Source of the DNA: Candidatus Bathyarchaeota archaeon | Lineage (GTDB): Archaea; Thermoproteota; Bathyarchaeia; Bathyarchaeales; DTEX01 | NCBI GenBank assembly: GCA_963714275.1 | Contig: CAVQNT010000007.1 | Span: 157,447-221,446, forward strand | Reading direction: 5' to 3' | DNA: 64,000 bases | In this document: positions 21,115 to 60,339 of the stretch, one piece after another | Position numbering within the stretch: position 1 is the first letter of the stretch | Layout of the letters: each line of letters begins with the position of its first letter | Notes under the pieces: model-generated | Database searches by the model: none | Told to the model about the DNA's origin: nothing | What the model saw: the letters and a program-made list of their open reading frames with translations, nothing else | Translations under genes and position numbers: made by a program

Positions 21115-21277
21115 TAAATTTTACCTCTAAACTCAAACTTTTTCTTTTTTATTCTTTTTCTACCTTTCTCTGTATCCCATTAGACGTGTACATGGTTTAG
21201 TGTGTGTGTACTTGTACCAGTTCTCTTTTAGTACAGTACATTTCAACAGTGGTTTTGTATTTTGTATGTTTTTTTGT
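21115..21277 (+). repeat. ~163-bp non-coding repeat, copy 1 (copy 2 at 29658-29821)
   Basis: Near-identical direct copies (about 5 differences), both starting at TAAATTTTA. Confidence 0.9.
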
Positions 21278-21392
21278 AGAGAGAGAGTATAAGTTAGCTG
21301 ACTATGAGAGTAAGGGAGAGAAAAGGCGTGAGTTAAAGGAAGGAGGAGTCAAAATTTGATCCACAAATATCTGACGTGCGTGTTGGCCCAGA

Positions 21393-21803
21393 TTACGGCT
21401 GCTTGAAGTCTACACTACTCTCAGGTTGTGTGCTTAACACCTGCTCAGCTGCAACCGGTGCTTTAACCATAAATGATGTTTCTGTTCCGCTAACGCCATC
21501 GCTTGCTTTTACAGTGTACATTCCTGTTGTTGCATCAGGCCCGTAGGTTGTAAAGAAAAGTCCTTCCGCGCCAGATTCTATAAGCCAATTACTAAGAGTA
21601 CCATCAGGCCTTATTACTTCAACATCAACCTTCGCATTTGACACGAAAAAAAAGCCAGAAATGGTGACCGTTTCATCAGGATCATAATTTGATTTATCCG
21701 TCGAAATTGCCGCAACAGTGCGAGAAGATTTCGTTACTATTACCACTGTTGACAATAATGTCAGGAATACTATTAGTATCACGACCGAAACTCTGTTTTT
21801 CAA
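21393..21803 (-). CDS. Secreted Ig-like/surface protein, probably truncated
   Basis: Signal peptide, ISTDKSNYDPDETVTISG, GMYTVKASDG. Confidence 0.6.
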   Translation of the reverse strand: MKNRVSVVILIVFLTLLSTVVIVTKSSRTVAAISTDKSNYDPDETVTISGFFFVSNAKVDVEVIRPDGTLSNWLIESGAEGLFFTTYGPDATTGMYTVKASDGVSGTETSFMVKAPVAAEQVLSTQPESSVDFKQP

Positions 21804-21877
21804 TTTTTCTCATCCCAAAGCACGCGCTTGTGCTCATATAGAATCTGTCTTCGGGCAGATAAGACTTATGGCAGAGG

Positions 21878-21996
21878 AGTCAGCTAGCTATTGAATTTAC
21901 AGCCACTTGTGTATTTGTTTGTGTGATATACGGGATACATGCGTGGATACAAGTAGAAAGAAAGAATATATAAGAAGAAGAAAAGCTTAAAATTTA
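21878..21996 (-). repeat. Linker-arm-core element
   Basis: AGTCAGCTAGCTA linker, GTGTGATATAC arm, TAAAATTTA core at 21988. Confidence 0.75.
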
Positions 21997-22065
21997 ATTC
22001 CTATAAACAAACGTTCAGATATTTAGTTTCTGTGCTAGTATTGCGGGCAAGTCTTAAATTCCGTT

Positions 22066-22518
22066 ATGGTAACAATTTTCATGATTAGAATGTCAGAGAA
22101 AGATGGGTTAAGTGTGCGTGAGCGAGCTCAGATTAAAGCAATTACTAGTTGGACAGATGAGCAAATCAGTAATTTGTCACCAAAGATGTTAAAATTTTTA
22201 AAATTGGCTAAAACCCAAGATTACAAGATGATTGCTGAAGTCGTCCGGTCAGAAAATTGTAGTTTTAAACTAAAAAAGGGAGACAAGCTTGTTTTTGGTT
22301 CCGCAGGAATATTGCTTCGGGACGAATCTACTGCAAATCTGTGCCTCTGGGCAATAGCTCCTCTACTACCATTTAACTACATGATTTACGACCGTCTTTA
22401 CGAAGAACTTGATCCTAACGATATTTTTCCTGATCATGTTAAGTGTACTGATGTCGGAGTAGCGTGTGGCGGTTTTGGTGAAGTTCTCTTTAAAATCTCT
22501 TGCCAAAAAGAGAGATAG
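22066..22518 (+). CDS. TIGR04076-like Cys-containing protein
   Basis: AEVVRSENCSFKLKKGDK, NLCLWA, KCTD...EVLFKI. Confidence 0.55.
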   Translation: MVTIFMIRMSEKDGLSVRERAQIKAITSWTDEQISNLSPKMLKFLKLAKTQDYKMIAEVVRSENCSFKLKKGDKLVFGSAGILLRDESTANLCLWAIAPLLPFNYMIYDRLYEELDPNDIFPDHVKCTDVGVACGGFGEVLFKISCQKER

Positions 22519-22833
22519 TCACTCAGCAATGCCCTAAATAGGAAATATGTTGCTAAATCAAAAAGTAAAAAGCCTTCTTGAAAGGCTGGAGAAAGAAGAT
22601 TGACGCCAAATTCGTTTAAGCCACCTAAAATTGTTGAGTTTGAAAAGGAAAAATATAATATTACATGAAATTCACAAAAAAAATTTTAGTGAAGGTCTAA
22701 TTAGTTTAAATTGTAAACTTTTATGATGTCATTTATTTATTTTTTCAGTGGGCATTAGAACCTTTCATATAATGATATTTATAAACAAGGCTTCCTACTA
22801 TATTGTAATACAACGTGTGAGGAAGATAAAGTT

Positions 22834-23121: not shown

Positions 23122-23186
23122 GCCAGTCAGCTAGAGAAAGAAGAAGCGTTGAACGAAGAAAATAATACCTATCCGTTCTTGCCAAT

Positions 23187-23423: not shown

Positions 23424-23610
23424 CCTTCAAAACAATCCTTTTTAGTGATTGTTAACCCGAGATAAGAACCCTTTCCTTCTTGATTATACGGAGTATTTCT
23501 TGCGTCGCCAAAGATATTTGGTGGCTGCAAGATCAAAGGGATCAATATCTTTTATACGGTTTTGATTAAGACTAGGACTTTCAATATATCATAGTCTGGA
23601 ATAAAAACCA

Positions 23611-23710
23611 TTAGTGAGCTAGAACGTTTTTGTGTGATATACGATATACTGAGCAAACAGAAGCGGATAAGAAATAAAAAAAGAGAGAGAAAGATTAGAT
23701 TTTAGTCCAA
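23611..23710 (-). repeat. Linker-arm-core element (arm shared with 29815-29898)
   Basis: TTAGTGAGCTAG linker, TGTGTGATATACGATATACTGAGCAAACAGAAGCG arm, TAGATTTTA core. Confidence 0.8.
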
Positions 23711-23803
23711 CCAACCAACCAACACAAGACTTTGATGCTCAACACACCTCAAGGGCATGTGAACAAAAACTTTTATTGACTGACTATCATTCTTAATATC
23801 GAA

Positions 23804-24252: not shown

Positions 24253-25243
24253 CTAGGTTAGGGTCTTAAGCATACTTTCAGCATTTTCAATTGAAACATC
24301 TGGACCTATCTCGCTGTAGAGTATAAGTCCACCGTTGAATCCTTTAAAACCTCGGATTATTTGCTTCACTAGTTTTCTGACTTGGCTTGGTGTTCCAAAC
24401 GGCAACATATATTGTCGGTCTACGTCAGCGGCTAAGCACAGTTTTCCTCCGAACCTTTCTCTTATAGTCTGTATGCCCATGAGGCTAACTTGGATGTTTG
24501 CGACGTCAAGGCCTATCTCGATCATGTCGGGAAGCATGTCAATTACATATCCGTCGCTGTGAAAAAACAGGTGTTTTCCCTTCTTGCGGACTTGGTCAAA
24601 CATTTTTTTGTAAACAGGTTTGAAGATCCGTCTCCACTGTTCTGATTTTATCATGAGCCTCTGTTGGGTTCCCCAGTCGTCACCGAACATGACACCGTCA
24701 ACGTCCATTTCGAGCATTAACTTAAGCCGTTGAAGATTATAATCCGCAATCTTGTCAATTAATATGAAAAGCTCCTTTCTGCCCATAACGATGTCCAAAA
24801 GAATTTTCTCAAAACCTCTAAGGTAATGCAGCCTGTGCCAGATGCTACCACCATCAGCCAACAGATATTTTGAATGATCAGCTTCACGGACGGATTTTTG
24901 AACTTCCTCCATGCCAAGCTGGGGATCTGGAAGATAGTATGCTGTAAGGTTCTCCCAGTCAGCTAGAGGATGATGCACTGGCTGACCTATGACGCCATTC
25001 TGCAGGTTTCTCCAAATGACGCCCCACTCGTCTTGATAGGCTCCTTTACTCCACGATTGACTCTACTCTAGGGTTCTAGCCATGCCGTAAGCAGCAGCGA
25101 AATCCTGTGGATATTTCTCGTAAAGCTTTTTTCAGAGCATCATCTCGAGGTCCGGGGGGAACAGCTAAGTTATAGCATCCGTTCGGAATTCTGTCAGGTT
25201 CTTCGAACTCTATTGCTCTTATTACTCTTTCTCGTGAGTTCAT
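24253..25243 (-). CDS. Uroporphyrinogen decarboxylase / methyltransferase (URO-D/MtaA) family protein, frameshifted
   Basis: MNSRERVIRAIEFEEPDRIP, DEWGV, FGDDWGTQ, FHSDG, LPFGTP; the stop codon is supplied by a TAGCTAGC linker. Confidence 0.85.
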
Positions 25244-26752: not shown

Positions 26753-26761
26753 TGAGTAAAA

Positions 26762-29554: not shown

Positions 29555-29613
29555 TTTAACCAAACCAAAATGAGAAAAAGGCATATATAAAATTAGGGTT
29601 CGATTAAACAAGG

Positions 29614-30019
29614 GCTAGCTAGCTATAGCGCGTGAGAACGTTAGAGTGTGTGGAGGGTAAATTTTATCTCTAAACTCAGACTTTTTCTTTTTTATTCTTT
29701 TTCTACCTTTCTCTGTGTCCCATTTAGACATGTACATGGTTTAGTGTGTGTGTACTTGTACCAGTTCTCTTTTAGTACAGTACATTTCAACAGTGGTTTT
29801 GTATTTTGTATGTTTTTTTGTGTGATATTCGATATACTGAGCAAACAGAAGCGTATAAAATAAATAATTAGAGAGAGAAAAAGATTAAAATTTAGTCCCC
29901 AAACCTAAACATTGTCTTTCTTTCTTTTATTCTCTCTCTACCTTACTCCGTATCACGTATATCGTGTATATCACACACAACACAAATAAAAAACCCTAAA
30001 CAGTAGCTGACTGGCTTAG
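29614..30019. repeat. Composite non-coding element with two cores and three arm types
   Basis: Linker 29614, core 29658, arm matching 21115-21277, arm matching 23627-23708, core 29886, arm matching the reverse complement of 45467-45562, linker 30004. Confidence 0.85.
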
Positions 30020-30078
30020 TTATCTAATGCGAGAAGTTTTAAACAACTGATTAATAAAAAGGTGATTTCAGCTATCAA

Positions 30079-30949: not shown

Positions 30950-31115
30950 TAAGAAGAAAAAACGTTCAAAAAGAAATTGAAAAGTATAAAAATAAGAAGT
31001 GTCTATGTTTTCGTAACGAAAAACTAAAACAAAAAAGTGAATTAAATGACGTATAAGCGAAGTAATAGAGAATCCCGAAAGACGCATCGAAGGCATCCTA
31101 AAAAGAAGGAAAAAG
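30950..31115 (+). repeat. 166-bp repeat, copy 1 (inverted copy at 38358-38523)
   Basis: Reverse-complement match with no mismatch found by eye. Confidence 0.92.
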
Positions 31116-31205
31116 CTAGCTCAGCTCAGTAGGACTACTAAGAATTCTAGTCTTTCCTACTTCTTCTAATCCAAGTCGCACAAATATAGTATTTATTAAC
31201 TAAAT

Positions 31206-32280
31206 CTAAAAAAGTCTCTTCACATAATCCAAAATCATCGAAGGCCTATCATACATAAGTGAAAGTTCAGCGACACAAAGCAAGTAGCAGCCAACTTCCG
31301 CAGATAATTTACAATCTTTAAACTTTATCCTAAGCTGTTCAGCTTTTTCCGAATACCATATCTCTTTCAAACTATGTTCAAGAGCATTACCTAGGGAGTA
31401 GCAATCGTAGAGCCCAAGCGAGCAAAGGGCGCCAACTTCACCGGATGGAGACACTCCGATCTGCAAAGAAAGAGGGTGACAAGAAAAGTCGCCTTTGTTC
31501 TTCACTCAGCTCCAAGTAGGCTGCGGTATTCTGTAAGACTTTCCTGTACTGATGCTTTTTGAGGTAAAGAAGTCTACTCATAATTTTGTCTACATGATCC
31601 CAATCATTCAAAGTCATAATATCAACATCATCTGAAAATTTACCTATGTATGTGCCTTGACCGCAAACCTCGGGCAACTTAAAAATCGGAGAAAACGTTA
31701 TTCCGCTATTCAAACTATCAGCTAACGACAAAAGAGCTTCAATGTCATTCATAGTATGCGACCCAGTAATGATGGAGTTAATATTCGTCGACAGCCCATA
31801 ATCCTGCGCTATCTTAATACCCTCTACTGCCTTTAAAAACAGCCCTTCGATGCCGCGTGTTTTATCGTGGCGACTGTCAGGAAAATCGATGCTTACGCTG
31901 ACAATGTCAAGGTTTCTGTGTATTTCGGGCATTCTTTTTGCTAATAAATATCCGTTCGTAAGTACAAGGGTAGAAAGCCCAACCTCATCAGCATTTTTTA
32001 GAATCGCAGGCAAATCCTTTCTTAAGAGAGCTTCGCCGCCCGTAAAAACTGCGGTCAAACATCCCAAGTCATAAGCGTCTCTAACGATCTTGTTGATTTC
32101 TTCTGTGTTCATCTCTTTAACAGGTTGAGATTTCCAGAAATCGCAGAAGGGGCACCTTGCATTGCATCGGTGCGTAACAGAAAGGCTGAGAAGAATAGGA
32201 ACAGGTCTCCTTAGAACATAGTTTCCAACAAACGATTTTAAAGCATTCCGGATGGGAAACTCCCTAAGGGGATACCTCAT
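31206..32280 (-). CDS. Radical SAM protein with SPASM/twitch domain, frameshift ~31505
   Basis: CNARCPFC, FTGGE, LTNG, SVSID; C-terminal Cys cluster. Confidence 0.88.
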
Positions 32281-34162: not shown

Positions 34163-34870
34163 TTAATTTGAAGGCATAACGGGTTTCAGCGCACGCTTAT
34201 AGTTTTTTCGTTTCATCTGAAACTTTCCGGTTCTTTCAATATATTGAAATGCCAAAATCGAAAACGTAAGCCAGAATACCCCTAGTAGGTATCCTCCTAA
34301 AACATCGCTGAACCAGTGAACGTTAAGGTAAAGTCTATCAAAGCCTATAATAAATTCTATTGCAACAGAAAACGTGCTTGATAACGTTTTCCCATTTGAA
34401 GATTTCGAATGTTGAAATACAAAATAGGCGAGTAAACCAAAAAAAACTACAGAACCTGCGACGTGACCGCTTGGAAAAGAAAATCCTGTTTCTTGCATTA
34501 TTCCGTTTAAGGGTCTTTCTGAATGCACTAACATTTTAAACATTGTAATTATCGCTGCATCCCCACCCATTACTCCTACAAGCAACAACGCATTCTTCTT
34601 GTAGTTTTTGTAAAAAAGGCACGCTGCTATTAACAGAGATGCTGCAAACAAGGGAGTAGTGTCAAAACAATAAGCAACTATCTCAGATATTTGCGTGAGT
34701 GAACTCGTTTGGATTGATGCCGACCAAGAGTTCACGTTCGCATCTATCGAAACAAAGATACTCTTCAACAAAGCCACAAAAAGAAACCCAATCAAAGACA
34801 ATGCAGAAATAAAAAAAGCCACTAATTGACCCCAGGAAAAATCCCTCAAGATGGAATCCCTAGTCTCCAT
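34163..34870 (-). CDS. PAP2 family membrane phosphatase
   Basis: K..V..ERP, SFPSGH, RLYLNVHWFSDV. Confidence 0.9.
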   Translation of the reverse strand: METRDSILRDFSWGQLVAFFISALSLIGFLFVALLKSIFVSIDANVNSWSASIQTSSLTQISEIVAYCFDTTPLFAASLLIAACLFYKNYKKNALLLVGVMGGDAAIITMFKMLVHSERPLNGIMQETGFSFPSGHVAGSVVFFGLLAYFVFQHSKSSNGKTLSSTFSVAIEFIIGFDRLYLNVHWFSDVLGGYLLGVFWLTFSILAFQYIERTGKFQMKRKNYKRALKPVMPSN

Positions 34871-34929
34871 AAAACATCATTCAATCAAACAGATTTAAAT
34901 CTAGATCTTTTCTAAACTTATCTCACATA

Positions 34930-35054
34930 AAAATTTTAATCCCCACACACTTCTTCACTTATACGCTCTTGCTTTCCTTCTCTAATTCACTCACATACAT
35001 ACACTCTCTTTAAAAAAACAAACAAAAAAAACGCACAACGCATAGTTAGCCAGT
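34930..35054 (+). repeat. Core-arm-linker element
   Basis: AAAATTTTA-ATCCCC core, G-poor arm, TAGTTAGCCAGT linker. Confidence 0.65.
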
Positions 35055-35164
35055 CGATCAATACGGAAAAAGTCATGTTCCTCAACAGTTTTCTCATCAA
35101 ATTCTTTTGGAATTCCTTATCAGTTCGAGTGGACACATGTGAGAATACCTTGGTATTGAAGAGA

Positions 35165-36330
35165 TCAGACGGACTCGTTTTCCCAAATATAGAAGTTCAC
35201 GGGTAAGAGTGACTCGAGAAATTGTGCATCAGGAGGCAAGCTGAACTCGGAACTAGGTGTGCCAGGACCAAAGATGAGACGTACAATCTGGCGATTGGAC
35301 AATGTCAATGGTCTTGGAAAGTCGGACGCCTTCCTAACCGTGACCCCCTCGGACGAGAACCCGATCTCAACTCGCTGTTCAGTCCCTTCGATCGCAAGGG
35401 CAATAGTACGGCTACCTTGGAACCCCAAGTCGCGATACCTTTGACCTAACTGATACGCGAAGCCTCGCAATGTCGCCTCAAGATCGATTATTTTGATCAT
35501 TCGTTGGCAAGTTACATGCCACCATGCGCTTATAGAGAAGAACGTGGCGTTCAGCGGATGTGACCACGGCGAGTTAACGTGCAGCACCTCGCTTCCAAGA
35601 TTTTCAATTAAGTGCACGAGGATAGCGCGTATTCCTTCAGCAACTCCTCCGAACTCAACAACCTCCTGCTCCCTTTCGCGCGGATCAGCTACTACGTACG
35701 CATCTATTCCTTCATCACTTCGTGCCAGCCAGACCTGCTTTCCCTTACGCCCCAAGAGCATCTCGTAAAGTTTACGGGTGCGCTTAATCCCCATCGCTTC
35801 CCCATCATGTATAGCGATTATCGCATCGATCTCCTCCGAAGATGCACCATACGGGCTAACCTTATGGCTTGTCGAGGTGCCCACGACGCTGAGGGAATAG
35901 TGTGATATGTCAAAGTGCCATTGGTGGCCTGCGTTTTCCCAGCCGAAGCGCCCGTAGCGTTGCCTGTCGCCCCCTAGGTCAGAAAAGGCGTAGCCCTTCT
36001 CTTGCATCAGTGATATGCAATAGTTTAACAGCTGCGTCATGAGCCCAAGACCTCGGTATGATGGCCAAGTGGACACGACGGTGATACCCGCAACTTTCAA
36101 ATTGCCTCCCTCTACTAGCAACGTTTGATCAACATACTCTACGAGACTTACGACCTTAGGACCATCCTTCATAATAAGACAGTTTTTGATCTTCTCAGCC
36201 TGTGGGAAAAAGCAGTGCGGCCAACATGCCTCCACTGTCTCTATCGCTGAGAAAACATTCATCAGCTAACTTCACGATCGAATCAAAATCGTCCAGAGAA
36301 GCTCGAAACGGCCCTTCGATCATTTTTCAT
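35165..36330 (-). CDS. Eis-like GNAT acetyltransferase (5' frameshift)
   Basis: VSTWPSYRGLGLMTQLL, YGRFGWE, C-terminal SCP2-like region. Confidence 0.78.
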
Positions 36331-36616
36331 AGCCTCGCAAGATATTGGATATCTTAATCCATATTAGAGTTAACAAGTTGAACCATCTTTTGGACTTAAA
36401 CTAACTTATGATAACACAAGGTAACAAATGTGTGTGGGCTAGCTGACCTACAGGTCATGAGTTCGTCGTCGTGGTTGCGTCGTAGTCGTCGTCTCGTCGT
36501 CAGCGTTTAACTAGCTTCCTGAAGAAGAAAAAAATGCGCATGTGCAACATATATTGATTTGAAGCGCACTCTGGAAAGATAGAGATTATATCGCATTTTA
36601 AGAATTTTGACTGTTT

Positions 36617-38345: not shown

Positions 38346-38357
38346 TTAGCTCGCTGA

Positions 38358-38523
38358 CTTTTTCCTTCTTTTTAGGATGCCTTCGATGCGTCTTTCGGGA
38401 TTCTCTATTACTTCGCTTATACGTCATTTAATTCACTTTTTTGTTTTAGTTTTTCGTTACGAAAACATAGACACTTCTTATTTTTATACTTTTCAATTTC
38501 TTTTTGAACGTTTTTTCTTCTTA
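38358..38523 (-). repeat. 166-bp repeat, copy 2 (inverted)
   Basis: Reverse complement of 30950-31115. Confidence 0.92.
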
Positions 38524-38555
38524 ATAAAATTTTTATGAGATGTATTTATTCAATC

Positions 38556-39740: not shown

Positions 39741-39907
39741 TGGCTTTCTGTTGTTAATTTTTGAATTTATTAATATAAAACTATTTGAAGATTTTTTGAT
39801 ATTAGTTTACCCAAAAATACCAGTTTGTATTGGGATAGGGAATGTTAAAATATATCGGTTTTTAATACGAATTTTTAAATGCTTGCACATATGTTTTAGG
39901 TTTGAAT

Positions 39908-39955
39908 GCTAGCTAGCATGGGTTTGGGGACTAAAATTTAAGCTGAGCTAACTAA
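39908..39955. repeat. Minimal linker-core-linker element
   Basis: GCTAGCTAGC-ATGGGTTTGGGGAC-TAAAATTTA-AGCTGAGCTAACTAA. Confidence 0.75.
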
Positions 39956-45325: not shown

Positions 45326-45466
45326 TTTCTAACCTCCATATCTTGTTTGGTACTAGTTTCTCGCTCTTCTGCCTTAACCTACTGATTCATATGTTAATGA
45401 TGTATATATTTTTGCTTTATAGAATATTTAATTTTTTTGGGGGTATTTTCTCTATTATTCTGGGTA

Positions 45467-45690
45467 TGTGTGATATACACGATATACATGATACGGAGTA
45501 AGGTAGAGAGAGATAGAATAAGAATAGAAGAATAAGAGAAAAAAGGAAAGTGGGTTTGGGGTTAAATTTTAATCTTTCTCTGGCTCACTCTGACGCTCAC
45601 ACAAGTCTCTCTCTCACTCTCTCTGTGTCACAGAGACAGACACGCACACACGACACAACACACACATACTAGCTAACTAGCTAGCTAAGC
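45467..45690. repeat. Two-armed core element ending in a five-stop linker
   Basis: GGGTTTGGGGT-TAAATTTTA-ATCTTTCTC; right arm resembles 55561-55667; linker CTAGCTAACTAGCTAGCTAAGC. Confidence 0.85.
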
Positions 45691-47069: not shown

Positions 47070-47521
47070 AACATTAAGACAATTTGATACTTTTCAGAAA
47101 GTATGCTCTTCTTCCTTTTTTGTTTATAGCCCGCCGATAAGTTTTTCTCTTCTCTTTTTAAATTTTCTCATGACGGTTAAGTTACCTATTACATATTTGA
47201 CTTCCTAGTGAGCTGGGTTAATTTAAAACTCTTTGAAATCATCCTATTCCAATACTTTTCAAGCAACGAGTATATCCTTTTAGTCGAAAGGATATACGCA
47301 TTTTTTTATTTGATTGAGTTATACTGCTTTGAACTAGACTTAACAGCGTAACAAGGCATAGGTCTTTCTTGAACCTGATAAAGTCAAAAACACCAATCAA
47401 ACTGAACCAAAGGTTGGTGGTGGTGGTGATTAAAATTTAATCCCAAACCCAAATTTACTTACTCTTAACAATAGGAAAGTATTTGTACAAATAAAAAATA
47501 AAAGGAAGTTTGATGTGGGGC

Positions 47522-49192
47522 TTAATATTCTGGGGGCATGCCTCCATAACCGCCGCCTGGCATTCCGCCAGGTCCGCCCGGACCCCCTGGTGGCATAGGA
47601 GGAGTCTTCATCTTTCTAGACGCGATGATGTCATCGATCTTCAGTATCATTGTAGCTGCTTCAGTGGCTGACTTGATTGTCTGCTTCTTCACCACTAGTG
47701 GCTCATAGACTTCAAGTTTCCTCATGTCTTTAATTTTACCATCGAACACGTCGACGCCAGCCCATGTCTGTCCTTTCTCATGTTGAACTCTGAGGTCTGA
47801 GGTTATGTCAATTGGGTCGAGTCCTGCGTTCTCGCCTAGTGTTACTGGGATAATTTCCATTGCGTCTGCGAAGCTCTGGACAGCCAGCTGCTCTCTTCCC
47901 GGAAGCGTTTCAGCGTATTCTCTGAGTGCCTTGGCTAGTTCCATTTCAGGAGCTCCGCCTCCAGCCACTATTTTTGGTTCCTGTACTACATCTCGGACTA
48001 CGCATAGAGCGTCGTGTATGGATCTTTCTGCTTCGTCAACGATCCTTTCTGTTCCTCCGCGGATGAGTATAGCTACTGCATGCGGGTTTTTGCATCCTTC
48101 TACGAATGTCATTTTATCGTCGCCGATCTTTCTTTCCTCGACAATCGCAGCGTAACCTAGATCTTTCTTTGTCATGTCCTGCAGGTTAGTAACTACTTTT
48201 CCACCTGTGGCTTTAGCCAGCTTTTCCATATCGGATTTCTTAGCACTTTTTATAGCTACGATTCCTTTTCTAGCTAAGAAATGTTGGACCATGTCGTCTA
48301 TGCCTTTCTGGCAGATCACCACGTTCGCTTCGGTTGCAGCTATCTTTTCAACCATGTCTCGAAGCATGTTCTCCTCCTCATGGAGAAAGGCTTCCATCTG
48401 CTCAGGTGTTTCAATGTTGATCTTGGCATCGAACTCGGTCTTTTCTATTTCAAGTGCCATGTCTAACAGCACGATTTTGGCTTTTTCGACACGTTTGGGC
48501 ATGCCTGGGTGGACGACTTCCTTGTCTAGGATTATGCCCTTGATAAGTTTGGTGTCTGTCATTGATTCGCCGGGCTTCTTTTCAACCATGATGTCGTCTA
48601 GGTCCGCTCTGTATTCTTCTCCGACCTTTTGTGCCACGTAAAGAATGGCATCTACTGCTATGTCTGCCAGCATGTCGCGGTTTTCAGCCACTAGCTTGCT
48701 TGCCATCGACGTCATGGCAACTTTTTTTAATGGTTCTTTGTCTAGTGGTGATACTGTAATGGCTATTTTCTCTAGGGTCGCTAGTGCTTTGTCAGCGGCT
48801 TTTCGGTAACCGTCTATTACCACGGTTGGATGAACGTTCTTGTTCAGAAGGTCCTCTGCCTTTGAGAGGAGTTCTCCTGCTACGATCACTGACGTTGTTG
48901 TTCCGTCGCCGACCTCATCGTCTTGGGTCTTTGCTACTTCAACCATCATCTTAGCTGCTGGGTGCTCCACGTCCATCTCATCGAGAATTGTTCGTCCATC
49001 GCTGGTTATAGTCACATCACCCATGCTATCAACAAGCATCTTGTCCATGCCTTTGGGTCCAAGTGCGCTCCTAACAGCTTCTGCTATTACCTTGGCTGCC
49101 ATTATGTTGTTATGTTGCGCTTCTCTTCCTCTAGATCTGCTAGCCCCTTCCCTTAAGATCAATACAGGTACTCCGCCTTGTTGTACAGACAT
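47522..49192 (-). CDS. thsB: Thermosome (group II chaperonin) subunit with GGM-like tail
   Basis: [28 protein letters not shown]. Confidence 0.93.
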
Positions 49193-49248
49193 TATTTATT
49201 TTCCTCCATTTTCTTGTTCTTTTAATTTGTTCGATTCTAATCAGTTTC

Positions 49249-50895
49249 TTAGTACTCGCCCTCTTCTCCCATCCCTGGGCCTTTAGGCATTGTTTCTTTA
49301 GGTTTAGTAGCAGCAATGATGTCGTCGATCCTTAGAATCATGCATGCAGATTCGGTGGCGGATTTTATCGCCTGTTCCTTTACGCTTAAAGGTTCGATGA
49401 CGCCCATTTCGTACATATTGGCAACTTTGCCCGTAAAAACGTCAACGCCCATATATTGGCCTTTAGGTTTCTCGTGGGCTGTTCTTAAAGCAACTGAGAT
49501 GTCGATTTGCTCTAAACCAGCATTCTCAGCTAGTGTTTTAGGTATTGCTTCTAAGGATTCTGCAAAGGCGTTAACTGCCAGTTGCTCTCTTCCACCGACC
49601 TTAACTGCGTAGTCGCGAAGTTCCCTAGCCACTTCAGCCTCTGCAGCTCCGCCTCCTGCAACGACGTTGTTCTTCCTAAAAACATCAGCTACAACAGATA
49701 AGGCGTCGTGCATGGCACGTTCAGCCTCATCTACCATCCTCTCTAAACCTGCACGGATCAGAATTGAGACGGATCTTGGATCCTTGCACCCTTCAATGAA
49801 AACCATTTTGTCGTCTCCGATCTTACGTTCCTCGACAAGGCCAGCGTAGCCCAAGTCTTCCGGCTTTAAGTCGTCGAGGTTTGTAACAATCTTTCCGCCA
49901 GTAGCCCTTGAAAGCTTATCCATGTCAGACTCCTTTGCGCGTCGAACGGCAAGGATGCCTTCTTTCGCTAGGAAGTGCTGTGCCATGTCGTCGATTCCTT
50001 TCTGGCAAACTAGGACATTAGCTTTTGATCTTTTGATCTTCTCGACCATATCCCTGAGCATGTTAGTCTCCTTGTCTAGAAACGCCTTTATTTGAGTTGG
50101 GTCTCGTATCCTGATCTCAGCGCTGATCTCTGTTTTCTTAACTTCCAAAGCCGCATTTACGAGAGCAATTTTAGCTTTTTCCACACGTTTAGGCATGCCA
50201 GAGTGAACTACTTCCTTATCTAATATTATGCCCCTTACAAGCTCTGTTTCAAGAAGGCTTTTGCCCTCTTTCTTAATAATCTGGATGTTATCAATGTCAA
50301 CCACAGTCTGTTCCCCACGTTTTTCAGACACCTGCTTTACTGCTTCGATAGCGATGTCGGCGAAGTGTTCCCTTGCTGTGCCAACGGCTTTGCTACTCAT
50401 CGACGTTACAGCAACCTTCTTCAACGTTTTTTTGTCGTCTAATTCCACCGTTATGCCTATCTTGGCTAATACCTCCATGGCTTTTTGAGATGCCTTTCTA
50501 TAACCACCAACGATAACTGTTGGATGAATGTTCTGATCCAAAAGTTCTTCTGCCTTCTTCAGTAGTTCTCCTGCTATAATAACCGCGGTTGTAGTTCCAT
50601 CACCCACCATGTCGTCCTGTGTTTTGGCTACTTCAACAATCATTTTAGCCGCTGGATGCTCAATATTCATATCCTTAAGGATTGCTGCCCCATCGTTCGT
50701 TATGGTTATGTCGCCCATGCTGTCGATGAGCATCTTGTCCATTCCGCGTGGACCAAGAGTAGTTTTGATTGTGTCAGCAACCGCCAACGCAGCTGCAATG
50801 TTGTTTTTTTGGGCTTCTTTTCCCCTATTCCTAGAAGTCCCTTCTTTCAGAACAAGTACTGGTTGCCCAGACTGAGTTTGCGTCAAATATGCCAT
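49249..50895 (-). CDS. thsA: Thermosome (group II chaperonin) subunit
   Basis: [23 protein letters not shown]; the alpha/beta assignment is tentative. Confidence 0.93.
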
Positions 50896-52133: not shown

Positions 52134-52625
52134 ATGGATATAAAGGAACGTTTAGTGGCTATTGGAAAATCGATTATTGCATATACAATATTAATTATTT
52201 TCTTCTTATTTTGCGTGTTTTTTTTGGGAATTAGGGACACAAAATTAATGCTCGTTATTGCATTTAGTTCAATTTTTATAATGTCATTCGTGGTAGTTTT
52301 TTTTCAAGAACAAAAAGCCAAAAAACCTAAACTATATATTGGCAACCTTAAGTGGGTAGAGAATAGACCTTCGCTTCAAACACCATATCTTCGTGTTTAT
52401 GGTGAAGTATGGAATGTAGGCAAAAGGACCGCCCACAATTGTAAACTTAAAGTAGTGGCTAATCAAGGAACAGTTAAAGCGATAGACACAGAAATATCTC
52501 TAGGCTCAATAGATATCAATCAAAAGAAGAGCGTGGACGAAAACATTTATTATGATGGTGAACCTCTCACAAGTAAAACTTTTCATCCAGAATGGACAGA
52601 AAAGAAGAAGAAGAAAAAAGACTGA
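52134..52625 (+). CDS. Membrane protein with C-terminal Ig-like (FxLYD-like) domain
   Basis: Two TM helices, VYGEVWNVGKRTA; AT-rich. Confidence 0.55.
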   Translation: MDIKERLVAIGKSIIAYTILIIFFLFCVFFLGIRDTKLMLVIAFSSIFIMSFVVVFFQEQKAKKPKLYIGNLKWVENRPSLQTPYLRVYGEVWNVGKRTAHNCKLKVVANQGTVKAIDTEISLGSIDINQKKSVDENIYYDGEPLTSKTFHPEWTEKKKKKKD

Positions 52626-52641
52626 AATTTAATCAATTCAA

Positions 52642-53382
52642 CTATCTATTATCCAGTGTCTTTAACAATTCTTGGGCTTTTTGTCCGATACGTTCGGCGA
52701 TTCGGTTGGCTATCTTCTCACCTAATTCATGAGAGGCGTAAATCCTAGGGTCGCGGCCAAAGATGCCTGCTTCTTTTATTCCTTCTTCGCTCTTCAAGTC
52801 TTCTTTCTTGATTTGTTCCATGTCCACGAGTTCTGGTCTTAGGTACATCATGAGCGAGGTTTCCCAGTGTGCAGCGTGATCCATCTTGTCATCTGTTAAA
52901 TCGTAGAGGTCTCCTTCCATCATTGCAAATCCCGTAGCCTTCCTAGTCTTCTTAATTGTGTCAACAGCTGTCTCTATTGCATTCTTCTGTTGTTCAACAT
53001 CGTGACCTGTTACGCCTACGATAACTTGGAACCCCACGTCGACTAATCCTAAGAAGATTTTTTCGTATAACCCTTCTATAAGTTTTTTTCCATACTCGTC
53101 ATCATAGTCAAAAAAGTTCATCGTCCACGGATGCCACTTATTGAGGAACCCCCAATAGGTCGGTGGGACGACCACGCCTCCAAACTTCTCAGCCGTTCTT
53201 ATGAGAATATTGTAAGCCTTGAGGGTATCATTCCCTAAAGGTAGATGCCTTCCATGCCACTCTAAGGAACCGAAGGCACAATATGCCACAGGAAACTTGG
53301 ATACTGCCTCATCCAGTTCATGGGGAAGCATTTCCTCATATCGAACTTTCCGTTTTGTCAGTTTCATCATAAATCTCCTCAA
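52642..53382 (-). CDS. Creatininase family protein
   Basis: GSLEWHGRHLPLGND, GH, DHAAHWETS. Confidence 0.88.
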   Translation of the reverse strand: MRRFMMKLTKRKVRYEEMLPHELDEAVSKFPVAYCAFGSLEWHGRHLPLGNDTLKAYNILIRTAEKFGGVVVPPTYWGFLNKWHPWTMNFFDYDDEYGKKLIEGLYEKIFLGLVDVGFQVIVGVTGHDVEQQKNAIETAVDTIKKTRKATGFAMMEGDLYDLTDDKMDHAAHWETSLMMYLRPELVDMEQIKKEDLKSEEGIKEAGIFGRDPRIYASHELGEKIANRIAERIGQKAQELLKTLDNR

Positions 53383-53480: not shown

Positions 53481-53599
53481 TAACTGGCTAGCTATGTAAT
53501 TGTTTTTGTTTGTGTTTGTTTGTTTAGCCTTGTATTGGTAAGTTTGAGTATTGAAGTATAAGGGCGTAAGTAAGTATGGGTTGGGGGAACTACATTTTA
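53481..53599 (-). repeat. Linker-arm-core element
   Basis: TAACTGGCTAGCTA linker, TG-rich arm, GGGTTGGGGGAAC-TACATTTTA core. Confidence 0.65.
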
Positions 53600-53725
53600 G
53601 CTGCAGCTGCTTTTGGATATAGCTCAAAATAAGAGGCGCATTTAGTATTCTATATGCGTGTAGAATTATTTCTAATATGATGTATGAAACTCCTACGCCT
53701 ATAACGGATTATATAGTGTTACACT

Positions 53726-54165: not shown

Positions 54166-55512
54166 TTATTTGTCGGGAAAAGTAAGCAAGGTCATTAGCT
54201 CAGATATATCTTGCACCTTCTCCAGTGACAATACAGTCTCTGCAATCTGCTCTGCCCGACTTTGGGAGAGAACTCGCAACGCACATTTCATGTACTTGTC
54301 CATGACTTCCTCATCACTAACTATGATTGGGTCAGTGGGCTTTGGACATACCTTCTTGTATTCAGTGCCATCTTTCAGTCTGATAGCTATAGGGATTTCT
54401 CCTCCTAATGGCAACTCGGGAGCAGCCCATTCTGGATGGACAACCATCTTTACCTTGTCTCGGAAGGCTATGACCTGTGGGTGATTCACCCTTTCAGTAC
54501 TGTAGCTCTCTATCCATGGTTTCTTATCCAGAAAACAACAGGCAATACTGTGTGGCAGGCTAAATCTAGCCTCCTCTTCATCTTTCGGGTGATGGAACCG
54601 TATTGTATTGGCAAATACTGGGGAAACATCGACCTGTATGCTTTCCACATCATCCGCAGAAATGTTGTGAGCCTTTATGAGTTCAATAAAGCCATCAATG
54701 GGGTGCATTTCCAGAAAGCAGCAAGGATATTTTTTAATGCCAATATTCTTCGCTCGGTATGGCTCTCCTAATTTCGGGAATAGAGTAGGCTTCCCCAGCC
54801 ACGCCGTGCAAGTATCCCCTAGGCATCTCCAATGATATCTGGCTGGCCCGTGAGACCATGCTTAGCCAACATTGCCGAAGCTATCCCATTCCTCCCAGCA
54901 AGTCCTGCTTCGAAGAGGTGTGAGCCTGTACCGGTCTGGCTCAGAATGCGCCAGCTTGGTATGGGAAGCAGCAACACTTACCGCCATTGTTGTTTTTTCT
55001 AATCCGAGTTTCAACATCTTAGCTGAAGAGGCCGCCACACCTATCGTGCAGAAGGAAGGAGCAATGCCCCGCGACGAAGAAGCATCTTAACAGACTGGCA
55101 AAGATAACTTTCCGGCTATGTCCCAGGCTATGACAAATGCCTCGATGACTTCTTTTCCTGAAACGTGAAGCTTCTCTCCAAGAGCAAAGACGCCGGGAAA
55201 GATTCCTACGCTGTAAATCAAGTCAGGGATGATATCGTCCTCTAACTCTGTAGAGTGAGACGTAGTCCCATTTGCAAGTGCCGCGTACTCCGCTGAAGTG
55301 CGAAAACCAGCACCGAAAACTCCAGCCTCCTGAGGTGCCGCGCATTCTTTTACATAACTTATTACGGCTTTGCCAGCACCAGTATTAACACCAGCTAAGG
55401 TCATACCTACACCACTCAGAAGGACGTTTTTAACGTGTTTTACAAGAGCCGAGTCAAAGTCATCAAAAGTAGTCTTATGGGCAAACTCAGCTATGTCCCT
55501 CGTTGTCCCCAT
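54166..55512 (-). CDS. MmgE/PrpD family protein, frameshifted
   Basis: AALANGTTSHSTELEDD, HPIDG, ARFSLPH. Confidence 0.85.
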
Positions 55513-55551
55513 ATTAGACCCTCTTTAGTTAATTACTGAAAGTTAGTGTAT

Positions 55552-55667
55552 TAAAATTTAATCTTTCTCTGCCACGCTTAGACGCTCACACAGACTCTCT
55601 CTCTCTGTGTCACACAGACAGAGACACATACAGACAGACACAGACACACACAACTAAGCTAGTTAGC
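55552..55667 (+). repeat. Core-arm-linker element (paralog of 45563-45690)
   Basis: TAAAATTTA-ATCTTTCTCT, GACGCTCACACA, CA/GA tract, CTAAGCTAGTTAGC. Confidence 0.8.
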
Positions 55668-55833
55668 CTATAGTAAGACAGTTAGTCAGAGAGATATAGT
55701 TAGAAAGATATAGGCAGAGAAAAAGATTAAGCGCGCGTTGTTTATGAATTATCTATATGATTGCTTTTAAGAAAAATACAAATCGAGGAACACTGTTTTT
55801 TTATTAATATTGTGGTCTTGGAGTGAATATTAA

Positions 55834-57136: not shown

Positions 57137-57251
57137 CTAGCGCTAGCTAGCTTTGGGTTTGGCGCGCGCATTTTTGTGTGTGCGTGTTTTTTGTTTGTTG
57201 TGTGTATTGTATCTCTGTCTCTGCCTGTGTGTCTCTGTGTCTGTGTGTAAG
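57137..57251 (-). repeat. Linker plus TG-rich arm (core absent)
   Basis: CTAGCGCTAGCTAGC followed by a ~98-bp TG/TC tract. Confidence 0.6.
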
Positions 57252-57452
57252 TTACTTTTCTCTTTGTTTTATGATTACTAGATCTCCATCAATAGTAACT
57301 ATGCCAAACCGTGCCATCATCGTTATTTTCTCTTCTACGGTACGCTTTGTTTCTTCATTCTCCCCAAAAGCGCGGATGATCTCTTGTCTTTTTGCTTTAC
57401 CGTTATTTTTCATGAGATACTGATGTATCATATAATCTTGTACCTCAGACAT
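57252..57452 (-). CDS. Small winged-helix-like protein
   Basis: 66 aa, helix-helix-helix-beta hairpin pattern (FGIVTIDGDLV). Confidence 0.5.
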   Translation of the reverse strand: MSEVQDYMIHQYLMKNNGKAKRQEIIRAFGENEETKRTVEEKITMMARFGIVTIDGDLVIIKQREK

Positions 57453-57799
57453 AGATTCACCATGTTATAAATGTCACGAAGAACTTATGTAAGTTTCTAT
57501 TCACACACCAAGGAAACTTCAGAATATTCGGTGTGCAAGTATTTTGTGTGTGGTTTTTTTATTTTTTTTGTGTTCCATTCTCTCACGCTTTGGGAAGTTG
57601 GCTGCTTCTTGCTTTGTGTTGCTGAGCTTTCGCTTATGTGATGGGCCTTCGATGATTTTGGATTATGTGAAGAAACTCCTCTAAACTTGGTTAATATATA
57701 ATATTAATCTTAAATCACATATTTAGAAATCATAAATTTTATGTGCGATTTCGTGTAAATGTGGTTAGATAACAATGTTGTATAAAATTCATAAAATAG

Positions 57800-58288
57800 G
57801 TGGCTATTATGACCCGAGGTAAACCTTGGACTTTTGATGAGGAAAAGCAGCTCAAAAAAATGCTTGGAAATGGAACATCCATAGAAATTGTTGCGGATAA
57901 ACTCGGCAGGAAAGTTGATGCTGTTAGAATGAAGATTGTGCGTCTCGGCTTGTCAAATGTTGTTGAACATTCGTATAGAACAACAACTTTGAAGATGCCT
58001 AAAGATCTTTTCAGCGTTGAGGAAGCTTTGCAGTTTTTGGCTGCTGCGTTGAAGGCTTCTGTTCAGCCGGGGCTGGATAAGGTTGAGGTTCAGAGGCTTA
58101 ATGCTGTTGCGAACCTTGCTAAGACGTACAAGGAGATTTTGGCGGACTATGTTAATTATCGGGGGATTGAAGAACAAATAGTTGAGATGCAAGAGAAATA
58201 TAGTGTTCTTCTAGATAATGCGATCGAGGAGTCCAAGCATAACGCTTCCAAGGTAGCAGAGGCTTCAGACCAAAAAGCGGAATATTGA
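57800..58288 (+). CDS. Myb-like HTH plus coiled-coil protein, possibly of mobile-element origin
   Basis: GKPWTFDEEKQL...VADKLGRKVDAVRMK HTH. Confidence 0.6.
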   Translation: MAIMTRGKPWTFDEEKQLKKMLGNGTSIEIVADKLGRKVDAVRMKIVRLGLSNVVEHSYRTTTLKMPKDLFSVEEALQFLAAALKASVQPGLDKVEVQRLNAVANLAKTYKEILADYVNYRGIEEQIVEMQEKYSVLLDNAIEESKHNASKVAEASDQKAEY

Positions 58289-58620
58289 GGTTCCTTTTAT
58301 CGCTTGAGTTACAGTGCCCATCGAGGATCCTGCCATATTTCTTATTCAGATAGTTTACGTTAAGCCGACTACTGACGAAGTTATCTTCGAAATGTTTCTG
58401 GAGAAGCTATTTTTGTCTGCAAAAAATATTAACTTTTGACCTAAATTGTCTAGAAAATAAAGAAAGATGTTCTTTAATTTGGTTTCAATATTTATATATA
58501 TATAAAAATTAATTCTTAATTCAGTATAAATTAAGGAGGTATATCGAAAAATACTTCTTAAATGAATCATAAATTTTTTTAATTTTTCTCGTCTGCTTCT
58601 GTTAAGAAGGGGAATAATGA

Positions 58621-59050
58621 GTGGAGAATTCTAAAGACTTAAAATTATTCGTTGACGAGCTTCGGAAAGAATGGAAAGCCATGTGGTATTCCATGATTGA
58701 TGACAAAGTTAGGGCTGAAGGTATTGCGGACAAAACCTATGAACGTTTGTTTGTTGATCGTGGGCTTATTTTGTTTGCTTCGAGAAATTTTAGTCCGCCT
58801 GAGTTTCATGAGAATCTTAAGTAAATATTTGTCTTCTGATGAAGCGGAAAGATTTAATCCAAACCCTCTTAGGGGTGGAGTGAGGAAGTTTATTCGGGAA
58901 TACATAACTGTTCAGAAAAAGTCCAGTTTTAAACTTAAAGAAGAGACAAGAGTTGCGTTAGAAGAAATGAAAAGTCATCAGCAGCTCAAACATGGTGGAA
59001 GAGGATGGCTTCACCTAACAATGGACGAAGCCTGTAAAAAGCAATCTTGA
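58621..59050 (+). CDS. Hypothetical protein, frameshift ~58815
   Basis: Two overlapping collinear ORFs. Confidence 0.5.
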
Positions 59051-59308
59051 ATTTTTGAAATGAAAATAGCAAGCTCAGCTAACACACTTGACCCAAATAG
59101 TAGAACAGGCACAAAACGACAACAAAAGGAAAATCGGGATTACTTTCTACTTCAACAGGCATCGGCTCTTAATCTAAGAATCAAACAGCCTCATGATCTT
59201 CCCTTCTTAGCTAGCTAAATTAAAATTTAATCTTTACGAACTAAATTGAGATAGTTTTCGCGAAGTCTTTTTAAGAAACTTGTCAAATAAAACGAAATGA
59301 TGGTTGAT

Positions 59309-60101
59309 ATGTCTAGGTTCTTTAAGCGAAAGAAGAAGGAAGAGAAAGAAGGAAGAGAAAAAAGAAGAGAAAGAGGAAAGTTTGTTGAAGCAACTATGTG
59401 GAGACGATGAAAAACTATATGATGTTCTTGCAACTCTCCTGTATTTGAATCCTATAGCGGGAATATCCAAAACGGATCTCGAGATCCTCATCGAAGAAGC
59501 AGAGAAAAGCAACACGGAAAAAAATTATGAAGAGGCAATTCTCAAAAATAGAATGGTACTGGATAAGGCCATTTTCGAAGCCACTCAAAATCCGAGGGAA
59601 AAGAGTAGATACATCAAAGTCATCCAAGACCTCGCGTCGAAGACCGTACATATGACGGAGAAAACAAAAGAAGGGGTAGAGAAGAATGGACTCACCGACC
59701 AAGTTGCTTCCCTTGAGAGAAGAATTAAGAATTATAAATTTATTAGCGAAAGAATCGAAGACGTACTAAACGTAGACTTCTCAATTTTACAATGAGATAT
59801 TAGTAACGCTGGGAGAAACGGAGAGGCGCGAAGCAAGACGAGAAGAGAGAAGAGAAGCTGAGAGCGAAGAAACGAGAATAGAAGAAGAAGAAAAAGAGAA
59901 ACGAGAAAAGAGAATAAAAACGAGAAGAGAGATGGGAAGAGAAGAGAGAGAAAAAAGTGAGATTGAAGAGCAAAAAGAAGAGCGAAAAGCAAAGGAGAGG
60001 CACGAAGCAAGAGGAGAAGAGAGAAGAGAAAGGCTGAGAGCGAAGAAACGAGAATAGAAGAAGAAGAAAAAGAGAAACGAGAAGAGAGAAGAAAAAGATA
60101 A
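59309..60101 (+). CDS. Helical protein with long E/R/K-rich C-terminal tail, frameshifted
   Basis: ORF 59304-59795 continues in another frame as ERREARREERREAESEETRIEEEEKEKRE; TAA at 60099. Confidence 0.6.
59821..60089 (+). repeat. ~93-bp coding direct repeat (59821-59913 and 59995-60089)
   Basis: GCTGAGAGCGAAGAAACGAGAATAGAAGAAGAAGAAAAAGAGAAACGAGAA occurs twice. Confidence 0.85.
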
Positions 60102-60339
60102 AAATTTAATCCAAAACCCATTCTGTTCTATTCTGTGTATGCTCTCTACATTACTCTTTACTCTACTCTATTCTCTCCTATCACAATATACGATAAGGCT
60201 TCTTCATTAATCAGCGTTTCAAGTGTCTGACTATATCCGACTTTTATTCTTGGAATTTCGAGAGTGCAACAAGTTCTTTAAGGTTAAAAGGGTTTGGGGG
60301 TTAAAATTTACCTACCCGAATAAAGGGTAATTGCATTAG

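Follow-up and report, generated by a model that had tools for sequence, protein, structure and literature searches.

The question raised by the DNA studied here, a stretch of 64,000 nucleotides from a Candidatus Bathyarchaeota archaeon (assembly GCA_963714275.1, contig CAVQNT010000007.1; hereafter the window, G000:C7:157447-221446), is how one nine-base core could come to stand at 14 places between 21 and 60 kb, flanked each time by a few recurring half-sites in different combinations. A preliminary description, made from the sequence alone, took these cores for recombination sites of an array of mobile gene cassettes, analogous to integron or pdif modules. In our analysis the core is, with a probability of about 0.75, the centre of the 15-bp integration target, and thus of the target-site duplication, of small casposon-like Cas1 transposons of Bathyarchaeia that are devoid of PolB, the arms beside the core being their terminal inverted repeats (TIRs). 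The part of the window between 21 and 60 kb is a decayed array with about 15 junctions, made mostly of solo or abutting ends and holding one remnant of a Cas1 tail. In the following, G-numbers designate genomes (G000, the source genome of 2.64 Mb in 10 contigs, given as C-numbers; G001, G002 and G004, relatives of the same genus) and L-numbers designate fetched loci.

Exact copies of the motif TAAAWTTTA number 13 in the window, compared with a mean of 2.54 in dinucleotide shuffles (sd 1.59, maximum 7), and none of 100 shuffles reaches 13. The repetition first described at 14 sites is borne out, with ten exact copies (21115, 21988, 29658, 29886, 39932, 45563, 47431, 55552, 59221 and 60302) and four that differ at one position (23696, TAGATTTTA; 34930, AAAATTTTA; 53591, TACATTTTA; 60100, AAAAATTTA). 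Three other exact copies, at 27388, 33074 and 57733, lack arms and seem to be chance matches, and an additional one-mismatch core with an arm lies at 52623. The spacing of cores is irregular, from 0.2 to 8 kb. The nine bases form the centre of a 15-bp palindrome, GATTAAAWTTTAATC, whose only asymmetric position is the central W; the most frequent 12-mers of the whole genome derive from this palindrome, the next being CCCAAACCCAAA and AGCTAGCTAGCT. Exact cores number 135 genome-wide, only 73 of them with a recognisable arm on at least one side, and the 2.6-Mb genome holds 116 armed cores.

An indication of what these sequences are comes from places where core and arm bound a Cas1 gene. Pairs of facing, near-identical arms 4.4-6.4 kb apart were found on contigs C4, C2 and C7 of G000. 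The inverted repeats of core and arm extend over 121 bp with 100% identity at C4:99117/105162, where they enclose a Cas1 gene, over 113 bp with 99% identity at C2:931104/937509, where the Cas1 gene is frameshifted, and over about 79 bp with 84% identity at C7:143212/147628, an element that also encloses Cas1 and lies 10 kb upstream of the window. Thirty Cas1 loci were detected in G000 by tblastn, three of full length and 27 fragmentary, the latter mostly covering residues ~300-342, that is the last 40 or so; 24 of the 30 have an armed core within 3.5 kb, compared with 20.6% of random positions (p = 6e-12).

The same arrangement extends to other genomes. Fifty-seven loci encoding relatives of the element Cas1 were fetched from species-representative genomes, nearly all of them Bathyarchaeia, and 16 units bounded by inverted repeats were examined on contigs from 12 genomes (G000 and 11 other Bathyarchaeia). 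Their inverted repeats measure 31-157 bp, with the 15-mer directly outside, and the elements are 3.2-7.7 kb long. Fourteen of the 16 units enclose a Cas1 gene (frameshifted in one) or a Cas1 fragment (L199); L132 has its Cas1 match inside the unit, and L148 shows a C-terminal match outside the unit only. The two flanking copies of the 15-mer (14-15 bp) have the same orientation in 13 of these units (G000 C4, C2 and C7; L121, L122, L128, L129, L131, L132, L135, L137, L145 and L199) and opposite orientations in two, and the case of the remaining unit is unclear. Seven units begin with the same 15-mer (L117, L122, L129, L131, L137, L145 and L199), and others with variants of it: GACTAAACTTTCGCC at both ends of L128, GATAAAACTTTACC in L132 and L135, GATTTAATTTTTAT in L121, and an asymmetric form, GAC…ATC, at both ends of the G000 C2 element and in direct orientation. 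Because some of these 15-mers (L128, L135, G000 C2) are not palindromic, their direct orientation is unambiguous.

The central W shows no correlation with the type of arm. In the C4, C2 and C7 elements it is the same base of the + strand at both ends, and among neighbouring G000 cores with facing arms of the same type both cores have the same + strand base in 15 of 18 pairs, compared with 19 of 49 other pairs (binomial p = 0.0075, Fisher p = 0.002; one of the 18 pairs duplicates another). Since 15-mers flank inverted repeats that enclose Cas1, and do so as direct repeats in 13 of 16 cases, we read the core as a 15-bp target-site duplication and the arms as TIRs. The idea of the preliminary description that the fixed core is a point of site-specific insertion is supported by these units that enclose Cas1, as well as by the homology that ends at some of the cores (see below). 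The outcome that it had named as contrary to its own reading, a known miniature inverted-repeat transposable element (MITE) with TIRs and target-site duplications, is found here as to the TIRs and the 15-bp duplication, but no known MITE is concerned.

Two bounded segments deserve a description of their own. A fourth facing arm pair, G000 C6:469855-475247, spans 5.4 kb with 173-bp arms that are 99% identical; its central bases are inverted and no Cas1 gene is enclosed. The genes in it resemble Alba, TFE and OB-fold proteins, as named by reading the translations alone, and at its right edge (474846-474950) a short Cas1 fragment is matched weakly and in isolation by tblastn (E 2e-4). The unit L199:2642-5831, of 3.2 kb, has inverted ends of about 100 bp and identical direct 15-mers, and contains only its Cas1 fragment and a gene for a secreted PQQ-type beta-propeller protein of 443 amino acids. 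It is possibly a cargo-carrying, non-autonomous derivative.

The element Cas1 has 344 amino acids and matches PF01867 (E = 8e-46) and TIGR00287 (E = 5e-47) over residues 10-335, and no type-specific NCBIfam model passes its cut-off on this protein. Pfam matches in the scanned element reading frames were limited to Cas1, one methyltransferase and one PQQ propeller, with no other nuclease or recombinase family in the 20 frames scanned, which are a subset of all. No cas2 or effector gene was seen in the elements scanned. The Pfam scans likewise returned no polymerase family, and the longest frames in 14 bounded elements are of 200-551 amino acids, mostly 380 or fewer. A conserved protein of 165 amino acids (L027:9617-10150, G000 C4), with relatives in the L122, L129 and G000 C2 and C7 elements, is characterised by the motifs RFNFR, WDLE and SYRAWCF; its relatives form 226 clusters and belong to no Pfam family. 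Its AlphaFold2 (AF2) model (pLDDT 88.9) aligns weakly with 13 chains of AEP primases and PrimPols (VIA-align Z 4.7-6.2, all below 8), and Foldseek gave no match at E <= 0.001 (best E 0.09 or more). A fold like that of AEP primases is thus a lead only.

As the preliminary description had stated for the window, a few half-site types (…AGAAAGAT-, -ATCCCCAAACC and -CTCTAAACTC) recur in varied combinations, and the genome-wide alignment of cores presents the same picture. Read outward from the core, both flanks mostly start with ATC and continue as one of few G-poor types (ATCTTTYTCT, ATCCCCAAACCC, ATGCACACAC, ATTCCTTCC); the TIRs, G-poor in the direction leading into the element, fall into CT-rich, CCCAAA-rich and CA-rich types. 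The pairing of a CCC-type with a CT-type arm is the commonest (26 of the 73 armed exact cores). When 270 half-sites were compared all against all, arms were found to recur with different partners, with homology beginning at the core; the ends of internal duplications fall within 15 bp of the core in 8 of the 270, compared with 0.2-0.3% in controls, a result that partly restates that arms are repeats. That the swapped flanks are the ends of different mobile elements with a common core is supported. The G-poor bias, also noticed previously, holds for the arms named at that time, whose first 90 nt contain 2-13% G; in 9 of 30 half-sites a G-poor run of 60 nt or more leads away from the core, compared with 10% of random intergenic positions of the same region.

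A stop-rich CTAG/TAAC linker motif is often found 70-110 nt inside the TIR. The distance from core to linker is +97 leftward of 21988, +109 rightward of 29886, +104 rightward of 34930, +97 rightward of 45563, +96 leftward of 53591, +91 rightward of 55552 and +72 rightward of 23696; the distances first given, 93-109 bp six times and 73 bp once, were therefore right to within a few bases (91-109 and 72). These stop linkers, (CTAG)n or TAGCTSAGCTA, are palindromic and carry stops in all frames, examples in the window being 29614-29628, 45669-45688, 57139-57152 and 60335-60350. A general core-arm-linker module was considered and rejected: a linker lies within 400 bp of the core in only 49 of the 270 half-sites, and the 302 (CTAG)n-type clusters of the genome, 278 of which are intergenic, are mostly distant from cores, 91% being more than 150 bp from any core and 9% lying within 150 bp, compared with 4% of random intergenic positions. 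Linkers are common in the inner part of arms, yet the motif also exists separately and is far more widespread.

By analogy with characterised casposases, Cas1 would attack the target at staggered positions 15 bp apart, and repair would duplicate the 15-mer, leaving two direct copies around each insertion. As every insertion would regenerate the target, new elements could insert beside old ones; two-armed cores would then mark places where two elements abut on a common duplication, and arrays with cores a few kilobases apart would result. Most copies have decayed to solo ends or to arm-only units, and the housekeeping-like genes between junctions, among them those for thermosome, GDH and glycosidases, would be mostly host DNA or DNA trapped passively.

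Relatives of the source genome provide a partial view of this history. They are available at the level of species, with 72-91% nucleotide identity in genes, and the related metagenome contigs have at most 85% amino acid identity. At the three intact Cas1 elements the genus relatives are too divergent and not syntenic. Homology with G002 ends near three cores of the window, at 34941 (0-3 bp), 21095 (20 bp) and 60347 (37 bp). At the first of these, homology of 91% spans the non-coding region upstream of PAP2 and continues through core 34930 before it stops; beyond the homologous core, G002 has a CT-type arm followed by a decayed Cas1 element of about 500 bp with a linker, and G000 has a CCC-type arm. 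The occurrence of one core with different arms in G002 and G000 indicates that the same target was used by different elements. The decayed element (L282:7400-7905, G002:C44) consists of a CA-type end, a Cas1 tail, the linker, a CT-type end and the core, and is located between the homologues of window position 19608 and of the PAP2 block; G000 is continuous at 19608.

The order of homologous blocks is wholly different between G000 and G002, in which the PAP2 (34228-34941), GNAT (35165-36404) and GH130 (38529-39791) blocks and the gene at 60347-60731 are on different contigs or far apart. In G001, G002 and G004 the block ending at window position 21045-21095 adjoins the inverted block 33897-31206, and in G000 the two are separated and re-oriented. 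From these sequence comparisons, the coincidence of G002 block ends with cores may be taken as evidence of a qualitative kind. The perfect 15-mer was detected in 3 of 41 sampled relatives, all of the same genus (18 sites in G000, three in G002 and one in G004), and the CT-type junction GATTAAAWTTTAATCTTTYTC in at least 113 stretches of GTDB genomes, with Bathyarchaeia accounting for 71 of 80 among the matches listed. A metagenome search with the creatininase-like protein encoded at 52642-53370 returned 80 loci, the best at 85% amino acid identity, with no armed core in 699 kb. The patchy spread of 15-mer and junction fits a mobile element.

Several observations weigh against the transposon reading. 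Three of the 14 G002 block ends are found within 40 bp of a core, which is not significant once such ends are confined to intergenic regions (binomial estimate p ~0.16). The generic cas1 model is the only one that the element Cas1 matches, along the whole protein and without the additional C-terminal helix-turn-helix (HTH) domain, and against solved chains phmmer ranks a CRISPR Cas1 (4n06, E = 4e-24) before the M. mazei casposase (6opm, E = 4e-11). Among the bounded units, the 15-mer is inverted in L117 and L148, the inverted repeat of L117 extends 12 bp past the core, and L115 is unclear. No two consecutive cores of the window have arms that are inverted repeats at the sequence level (4 of 67 pairs genome-wide), and the central base is common to both cores in only 4 of the window's 12 consecutive pairs; the array of the window is hence not a clean series of duplication pairs. 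The last point concerns the side of the junction opposite the CT arm: in 107 junctions from other genomes, the fourth position is a C (ATCC) in 80%, followed by about ten A/C-rich, G-poor nucleotides (G at most 8% through position 14) before the background is reached. Simple insertion into random host DNA does not account for this flank. It may belong to a target with symmetric flanks, by analogy with the 18-bp 'leader' of A. boonei, it may represent the stumps of CCC-type ends, or the palindrome itself may be an independent repeat of the host.

This last possibility leads to a different account of the locus, in which the core with its short CCCAAA-type flanks, approximately (K)10-GGAT-TAAAWTTTA-ATCC-(M)10, is an independent host repeat similar to repetitive extragenic palindromes and bacterial interspersed mosaic elements (REP/BIME), where Cas1 transposons merely prefer to land. 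Many armed cores of the window would then be unoccupied or formerly occupied copies of the repeat, not transposon ends. Insertion sequences (IS) that target REP/BIME palindromes are known, IS1397 for example; they would be alike in entering a short dispersed palindrome, if the CCC-flanked core is a host repeat, and differ by their DDE transposase, where Cas1 is found here. The ATCC and A/C-rich flank reaching about position 14 and the frequency of the CCC and CT pairing speak for such a repeat, as do the CCC-type sequence outside both ends of CT-type Cas1 elements (G000 C4 and C2; L131 and L129) and compact units such as 39908-39954, which has only a 12-nt CCC flank. Conversely, CCC-type arms form long and true inverted repeats of Cas1 elements in G000 C7 (~79 bp), L117 and L121, the two-armed CCC/CCC cores that would be its empty form are rare (2 of 73), no armed core was found in related metagenome contigs without the elements (699 kb), and the L128 element has a non-palindromic duplication without such flanks. 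We consider the host repeat unlikely as the principal explanation.

Regulatory signals would be another source of dispersed AT-rich palindromes: the cores could be symmetric promoter modules, with a TATA box and transcription factor B recognition elements (BRE), or bidirectional terminators, the arms being unstructured leaders copied around the genome as 'mobile promoters' and the link with Cas1 secondary. The core is indeed TATA-like and AT-rich with purine-rich, BRE-like flanks reading inward, GDH lies 274 bp downstream of core 55552, and the arms are nearly unstructured as RNA: the minimum free energy (MFE) of six of them is -1.3 to -16 kcal/mol (z -2.0 to +0.1), no better than shuffles, with the exception of the two-armed stretch 29830-29960 (z = -3.1), in which the purine-rich and the pyrimidine-rich arm pair with each other. 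But neighbouring genes, on both sides of 117 cores outside genes scoring >=20, point away from the core in 131 cases and toward it in 103, distances between core and start codon are variable, the hexamers enriched upstream of 1373 genes (TTATAT, TTTATA, TAAATA) differ from those of the core, and genes have their own, nearer TATA boxes, such as the one at 29581-29590; that of GH1 stands between the repeat and the start codon. On these grounds the cores are no ordinary promoters or terminators, and the direct 15-mer repeats around inverted repeats would be left unexplained; we regard this account as very unlikely.

The original proposal, att-type crossover sites of a tyrosine recombinase (attC-like or Xer/pdif-like) with exchangeable cassettes between them, fares worst, and we find it hardly credible any longer. 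Site-specific recombination of a circle likewise leaves direct core repeats around the inserted DNA, different half-sites with a common core are what such sites present, and the completely different block order of G000 and G002 would agree with exchange. Integron attC sites and the pdif modules of Acinetobacter are also short conserved sites that bound gene-sized modules and differ from site to site in their flanks. An XerC/D site measures 28 bp, with two recombinase arms and a 6-bp spacer, and a folded attC 57-141 bp. Here a 15-bp palindrome makes up the site, attC-like folding is lacking in the arms, and the genes of the window lie on both strands in mixed orientation. No PF00589 gene is present in the window, the nearest being at C7:58020-58499, about 99 kb before its start, and of the 13 tyrosine recombinase genes only 3 have an armed core within 3.5 kb, as expected from the 20.6% of random positions, so that no association with a tyrosine recombinase is apparent. 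The statement that the window has no recombinase gene holds for intact genes, but not for the Cas1 C-terminal remnant of about 100 bp at 60161-60265. The elements moreover carry inverted terminal repeats and Cas1, and their 15-bp repeat has the length of the duplication made by a casposase, as given in the A. boonei report (PMC5137440).

Returning to the Cas1 transposon reading, the junctions of the window can be followed from left to right. From 21 kb onward the window has long, low-complexity and strand-asymmetric intergenic tracts. The first junction is the 15-mer CGC-TAAATTTTA-CCT at 21112-21126, 20 bp beyond the end of G002 homology, with a right arm only; this rightward arm (21124-21277, + strand), of the CTCTAAACTC type, is 96-99% identical to 29667-29821. 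Core 21988 follows at 21878-21999 (- strand), composed of a linker (21878-21890), a CT-type arm (21891-21987) and the 15-mer. Core 23696 is a two-armed junction (23617-23785) around the 15-mer 23693-23707, with a linker (23617-23622) and a CT arm (23623-23695) on the left and a CCAACC-type arm (23705-23776) and a linker (23777-23785) on the right. Cores 29658 and 29886 bound an arm-only unit of 240 bp (29655-29897), where an arm of the 21115 type (29667-29821) faces a CT arm of the 23696 type (29815-29885). Rightward of core 29886, on the + strand, there follow a CCC-type arm (29895-30003) and a linker (30004-30021), and this arm is homologous over about 110 bp, in inverted orientation and 15.7 kb apart, to 45455-45562. 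Core 34930 (34927-35055, + strand) consists of the 15-mer, a CCC/CACA-type arm (34939-35042) and a linker (35043-35055).

The compact unit at 39908-39954 contains a linker (39908-39917), the 12-nt CCC flank (39920-31), the core (39932-39940) and a second linker (39941-39954); it is absent from the corresponding GH130 flank in G002. The two-armed junction of core 45563 (45455-45688) has a left CCC-type arm (45455-45562), the 15-mer (45560-45574), a right CT-type arm (45572-45668) and a linker (45669-45688); over its first 29 nt the right arm is identical to the end beside a Cas1 fragment on contig C9. A perfect 15-mer, GATTAAAATTTAATC, is situated at 47428-47442, 83 bp downstream of a thermosome gene, with short flanks ATCACCACC leftward and ATCCCAAACCCAAA rightward (47412-47453 in all). 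An additional candidate junction with two mismatches, GACTGAAATTTAATC, is found at 52620-52634. The variant core 53591 (53486-53602, - strand) is made of a linker (53486-53494), a CCC-type arm (53495-53590) and the 15-mer, and core 55552 (55549-55668, + strand), upstream of GDH, of the 15-mer, a CT-type arm (55561-55651) that shares 79% identity with the right arm of 45563, and a linker (55652-55668). The 15-mer of core 59221 (59218-59232) has a linker (59205-59220) directly to its left.

The variant core 60100 (59991-60111, - strand) has a CT/purine-rich arm beside its 15-mer, with a G-poor run of 109 nt leftward, and together with core 60302 it bounds a miniature unit of 205 bp (60109-60313) with short facing CCC-type ends and the same central base at both cores. 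The unit contains, on the - strand at 60161-60265, a C-terminal Cas1 remnant (about residues 302-340, at most 76% identity to intact copies), and is a collapsed Cas1 element; no remnant of an element gene was detected in any other interval between cores of the window. Considered as MITEs, both this unit and the one at 29655-29897 have two arms that match over the first ~12 nt only or nowhere. Genes of the array region are damaged as well: URO-D is without its N-terminal third, glutaminyl cyclase without its C-terminal half and MmgE/PrpD is in two pieces (24253-24978, 40407-40868 and 54166-55512), and such truncated and split genes are signs of decay and rearrangement. The array of the window is old and rearranged.

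The casposons known so far are scarce, a genome mostly having one to three of them, and are located at the ends of tRNA or elongation factor 2 (EF-2) genes or at few intergenic sites. The elements of Bathyarchaeia differ by a target that is a free-standing palindrome instead of a tRNA or EF-2 gene end, and by a far higher copy number, with 116 armed cores alongside 30 Cas1 loci within 2.6 Mb. They also differ by their size (3-8 kb vs 8-20 kb for casposons), by the lack of a detected PolB and by a Cas1 of 344 amino acids that fits the generic cas1 model and is without the C-terminal HTH. The likeness is with the family 2 casposons, AciBoo-C1 of Aciduliprofundum boonei and those of Methanosarcina mazei, which similarly have Cas1 as their only recognisable integrase; two reports describe for them TIRs and a direct duplication of a strongly sequence-specific target, of 15 bp in A. 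boonei (PMC5137440) and of 14 bp in M. mazei, where tandem copies with one common duplication and solo-TIR remnants also occur (PMC4779613). A 2023 review attributes a polymerase gene to all identified casposons (PMC9939771). Among the papers searched we found none on casposons in Bathyarchaeia; supplementary tables of casposon surveys might list such elements. The present family is apparently polymerase-less and small, abundant, and directed to a 15-bp palindrome.

The growth of CRISPR arrays by Cas1-Cas2 offers a second comparison: as described in the literature (PMC5137440, PMC9939771), an integrase of the Cas1 family acts there on the two borders of a short repeat that is partly palindromic; each insertion duplicates this repeat, and repeats come to alternate with inserts. 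CRISPR arrays differ in having spacers of 30-40 bp, compared with kilobase-sized elements with inverted ends here, where the symmetric cores give no leader polarity, spacing is irregular (0.2-8 kb) and neither cas2 nor effectors accompany Cas1 in the scanned elements. We consider it possible rather than probable that a lineage of Bathyarchaeia carries compact Cas1 transposons that have dispensed with PolB, perhaps with the 165-amino-acid primase-polymerase-like protein in its place, which regenerate a free-standing 15-bp palindrome and so build kilobase-scale arrays of repeats and inserts; their ends, if recognised in trans, may carry ordinary genes, as the PQQ-propeller unit of L199 suggests. 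If true, this would be a living, large-scale analogue of the step by which, as has been proposed, CRISPR arrays arose out of the target site of a casposon. If confirmed, the elements would provide a simple, symmetric target for the study of site measurement and recognition by a Cas1 integrase, and natural arrays of regenerated targets that bear on the origin of CRISPR repeats. In practical terms, they account for the fragmentation of Bathyarchaeia short-read assemblies and the scrambled gene order in such regions.

The window holds, among others, two thermosome genes, GDH and several glycoside hydrolases, at a coding density of about 79% according to a crude gene caller, and the only Rfam match is a tRNA. 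GDH is flanked by inverted CA-rich/TG-rich low-complexity repeats that are 76-89% complementary (55727-55740 with 57155-57175; 55611-55652 with 57208-57252), and arm-like sequences near it end at GC-rich mini-palindromes (GCGCGCG) where the AT-rich core would stand. A repeat of about 171 nt occurs at 30950-31120 and, inverted and 99% identical, at 38353-38523, with an adjoining part of about 110 nt at 31186-31299 and 57593-57704; it is without Rfam match, is kept at 87-98% in G002 (C124, C50) and G004 (C98), and is found where homology blocks end, as in the case of the GH130 block, whose left end is 6 bp away. Also among the top 12-mers is the motif GGTCTGATTTGTGT, which with its neighbours has about 21-27 genome copies and, as far as seen, no relation to the cores. 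The two thermosome subunit genes are adjacent in the window (47522-50895); their homologues are on separate contigs in five of five genus relatives, and further thermosome paralogues are encoded on contigs C3 and C6 of G000.

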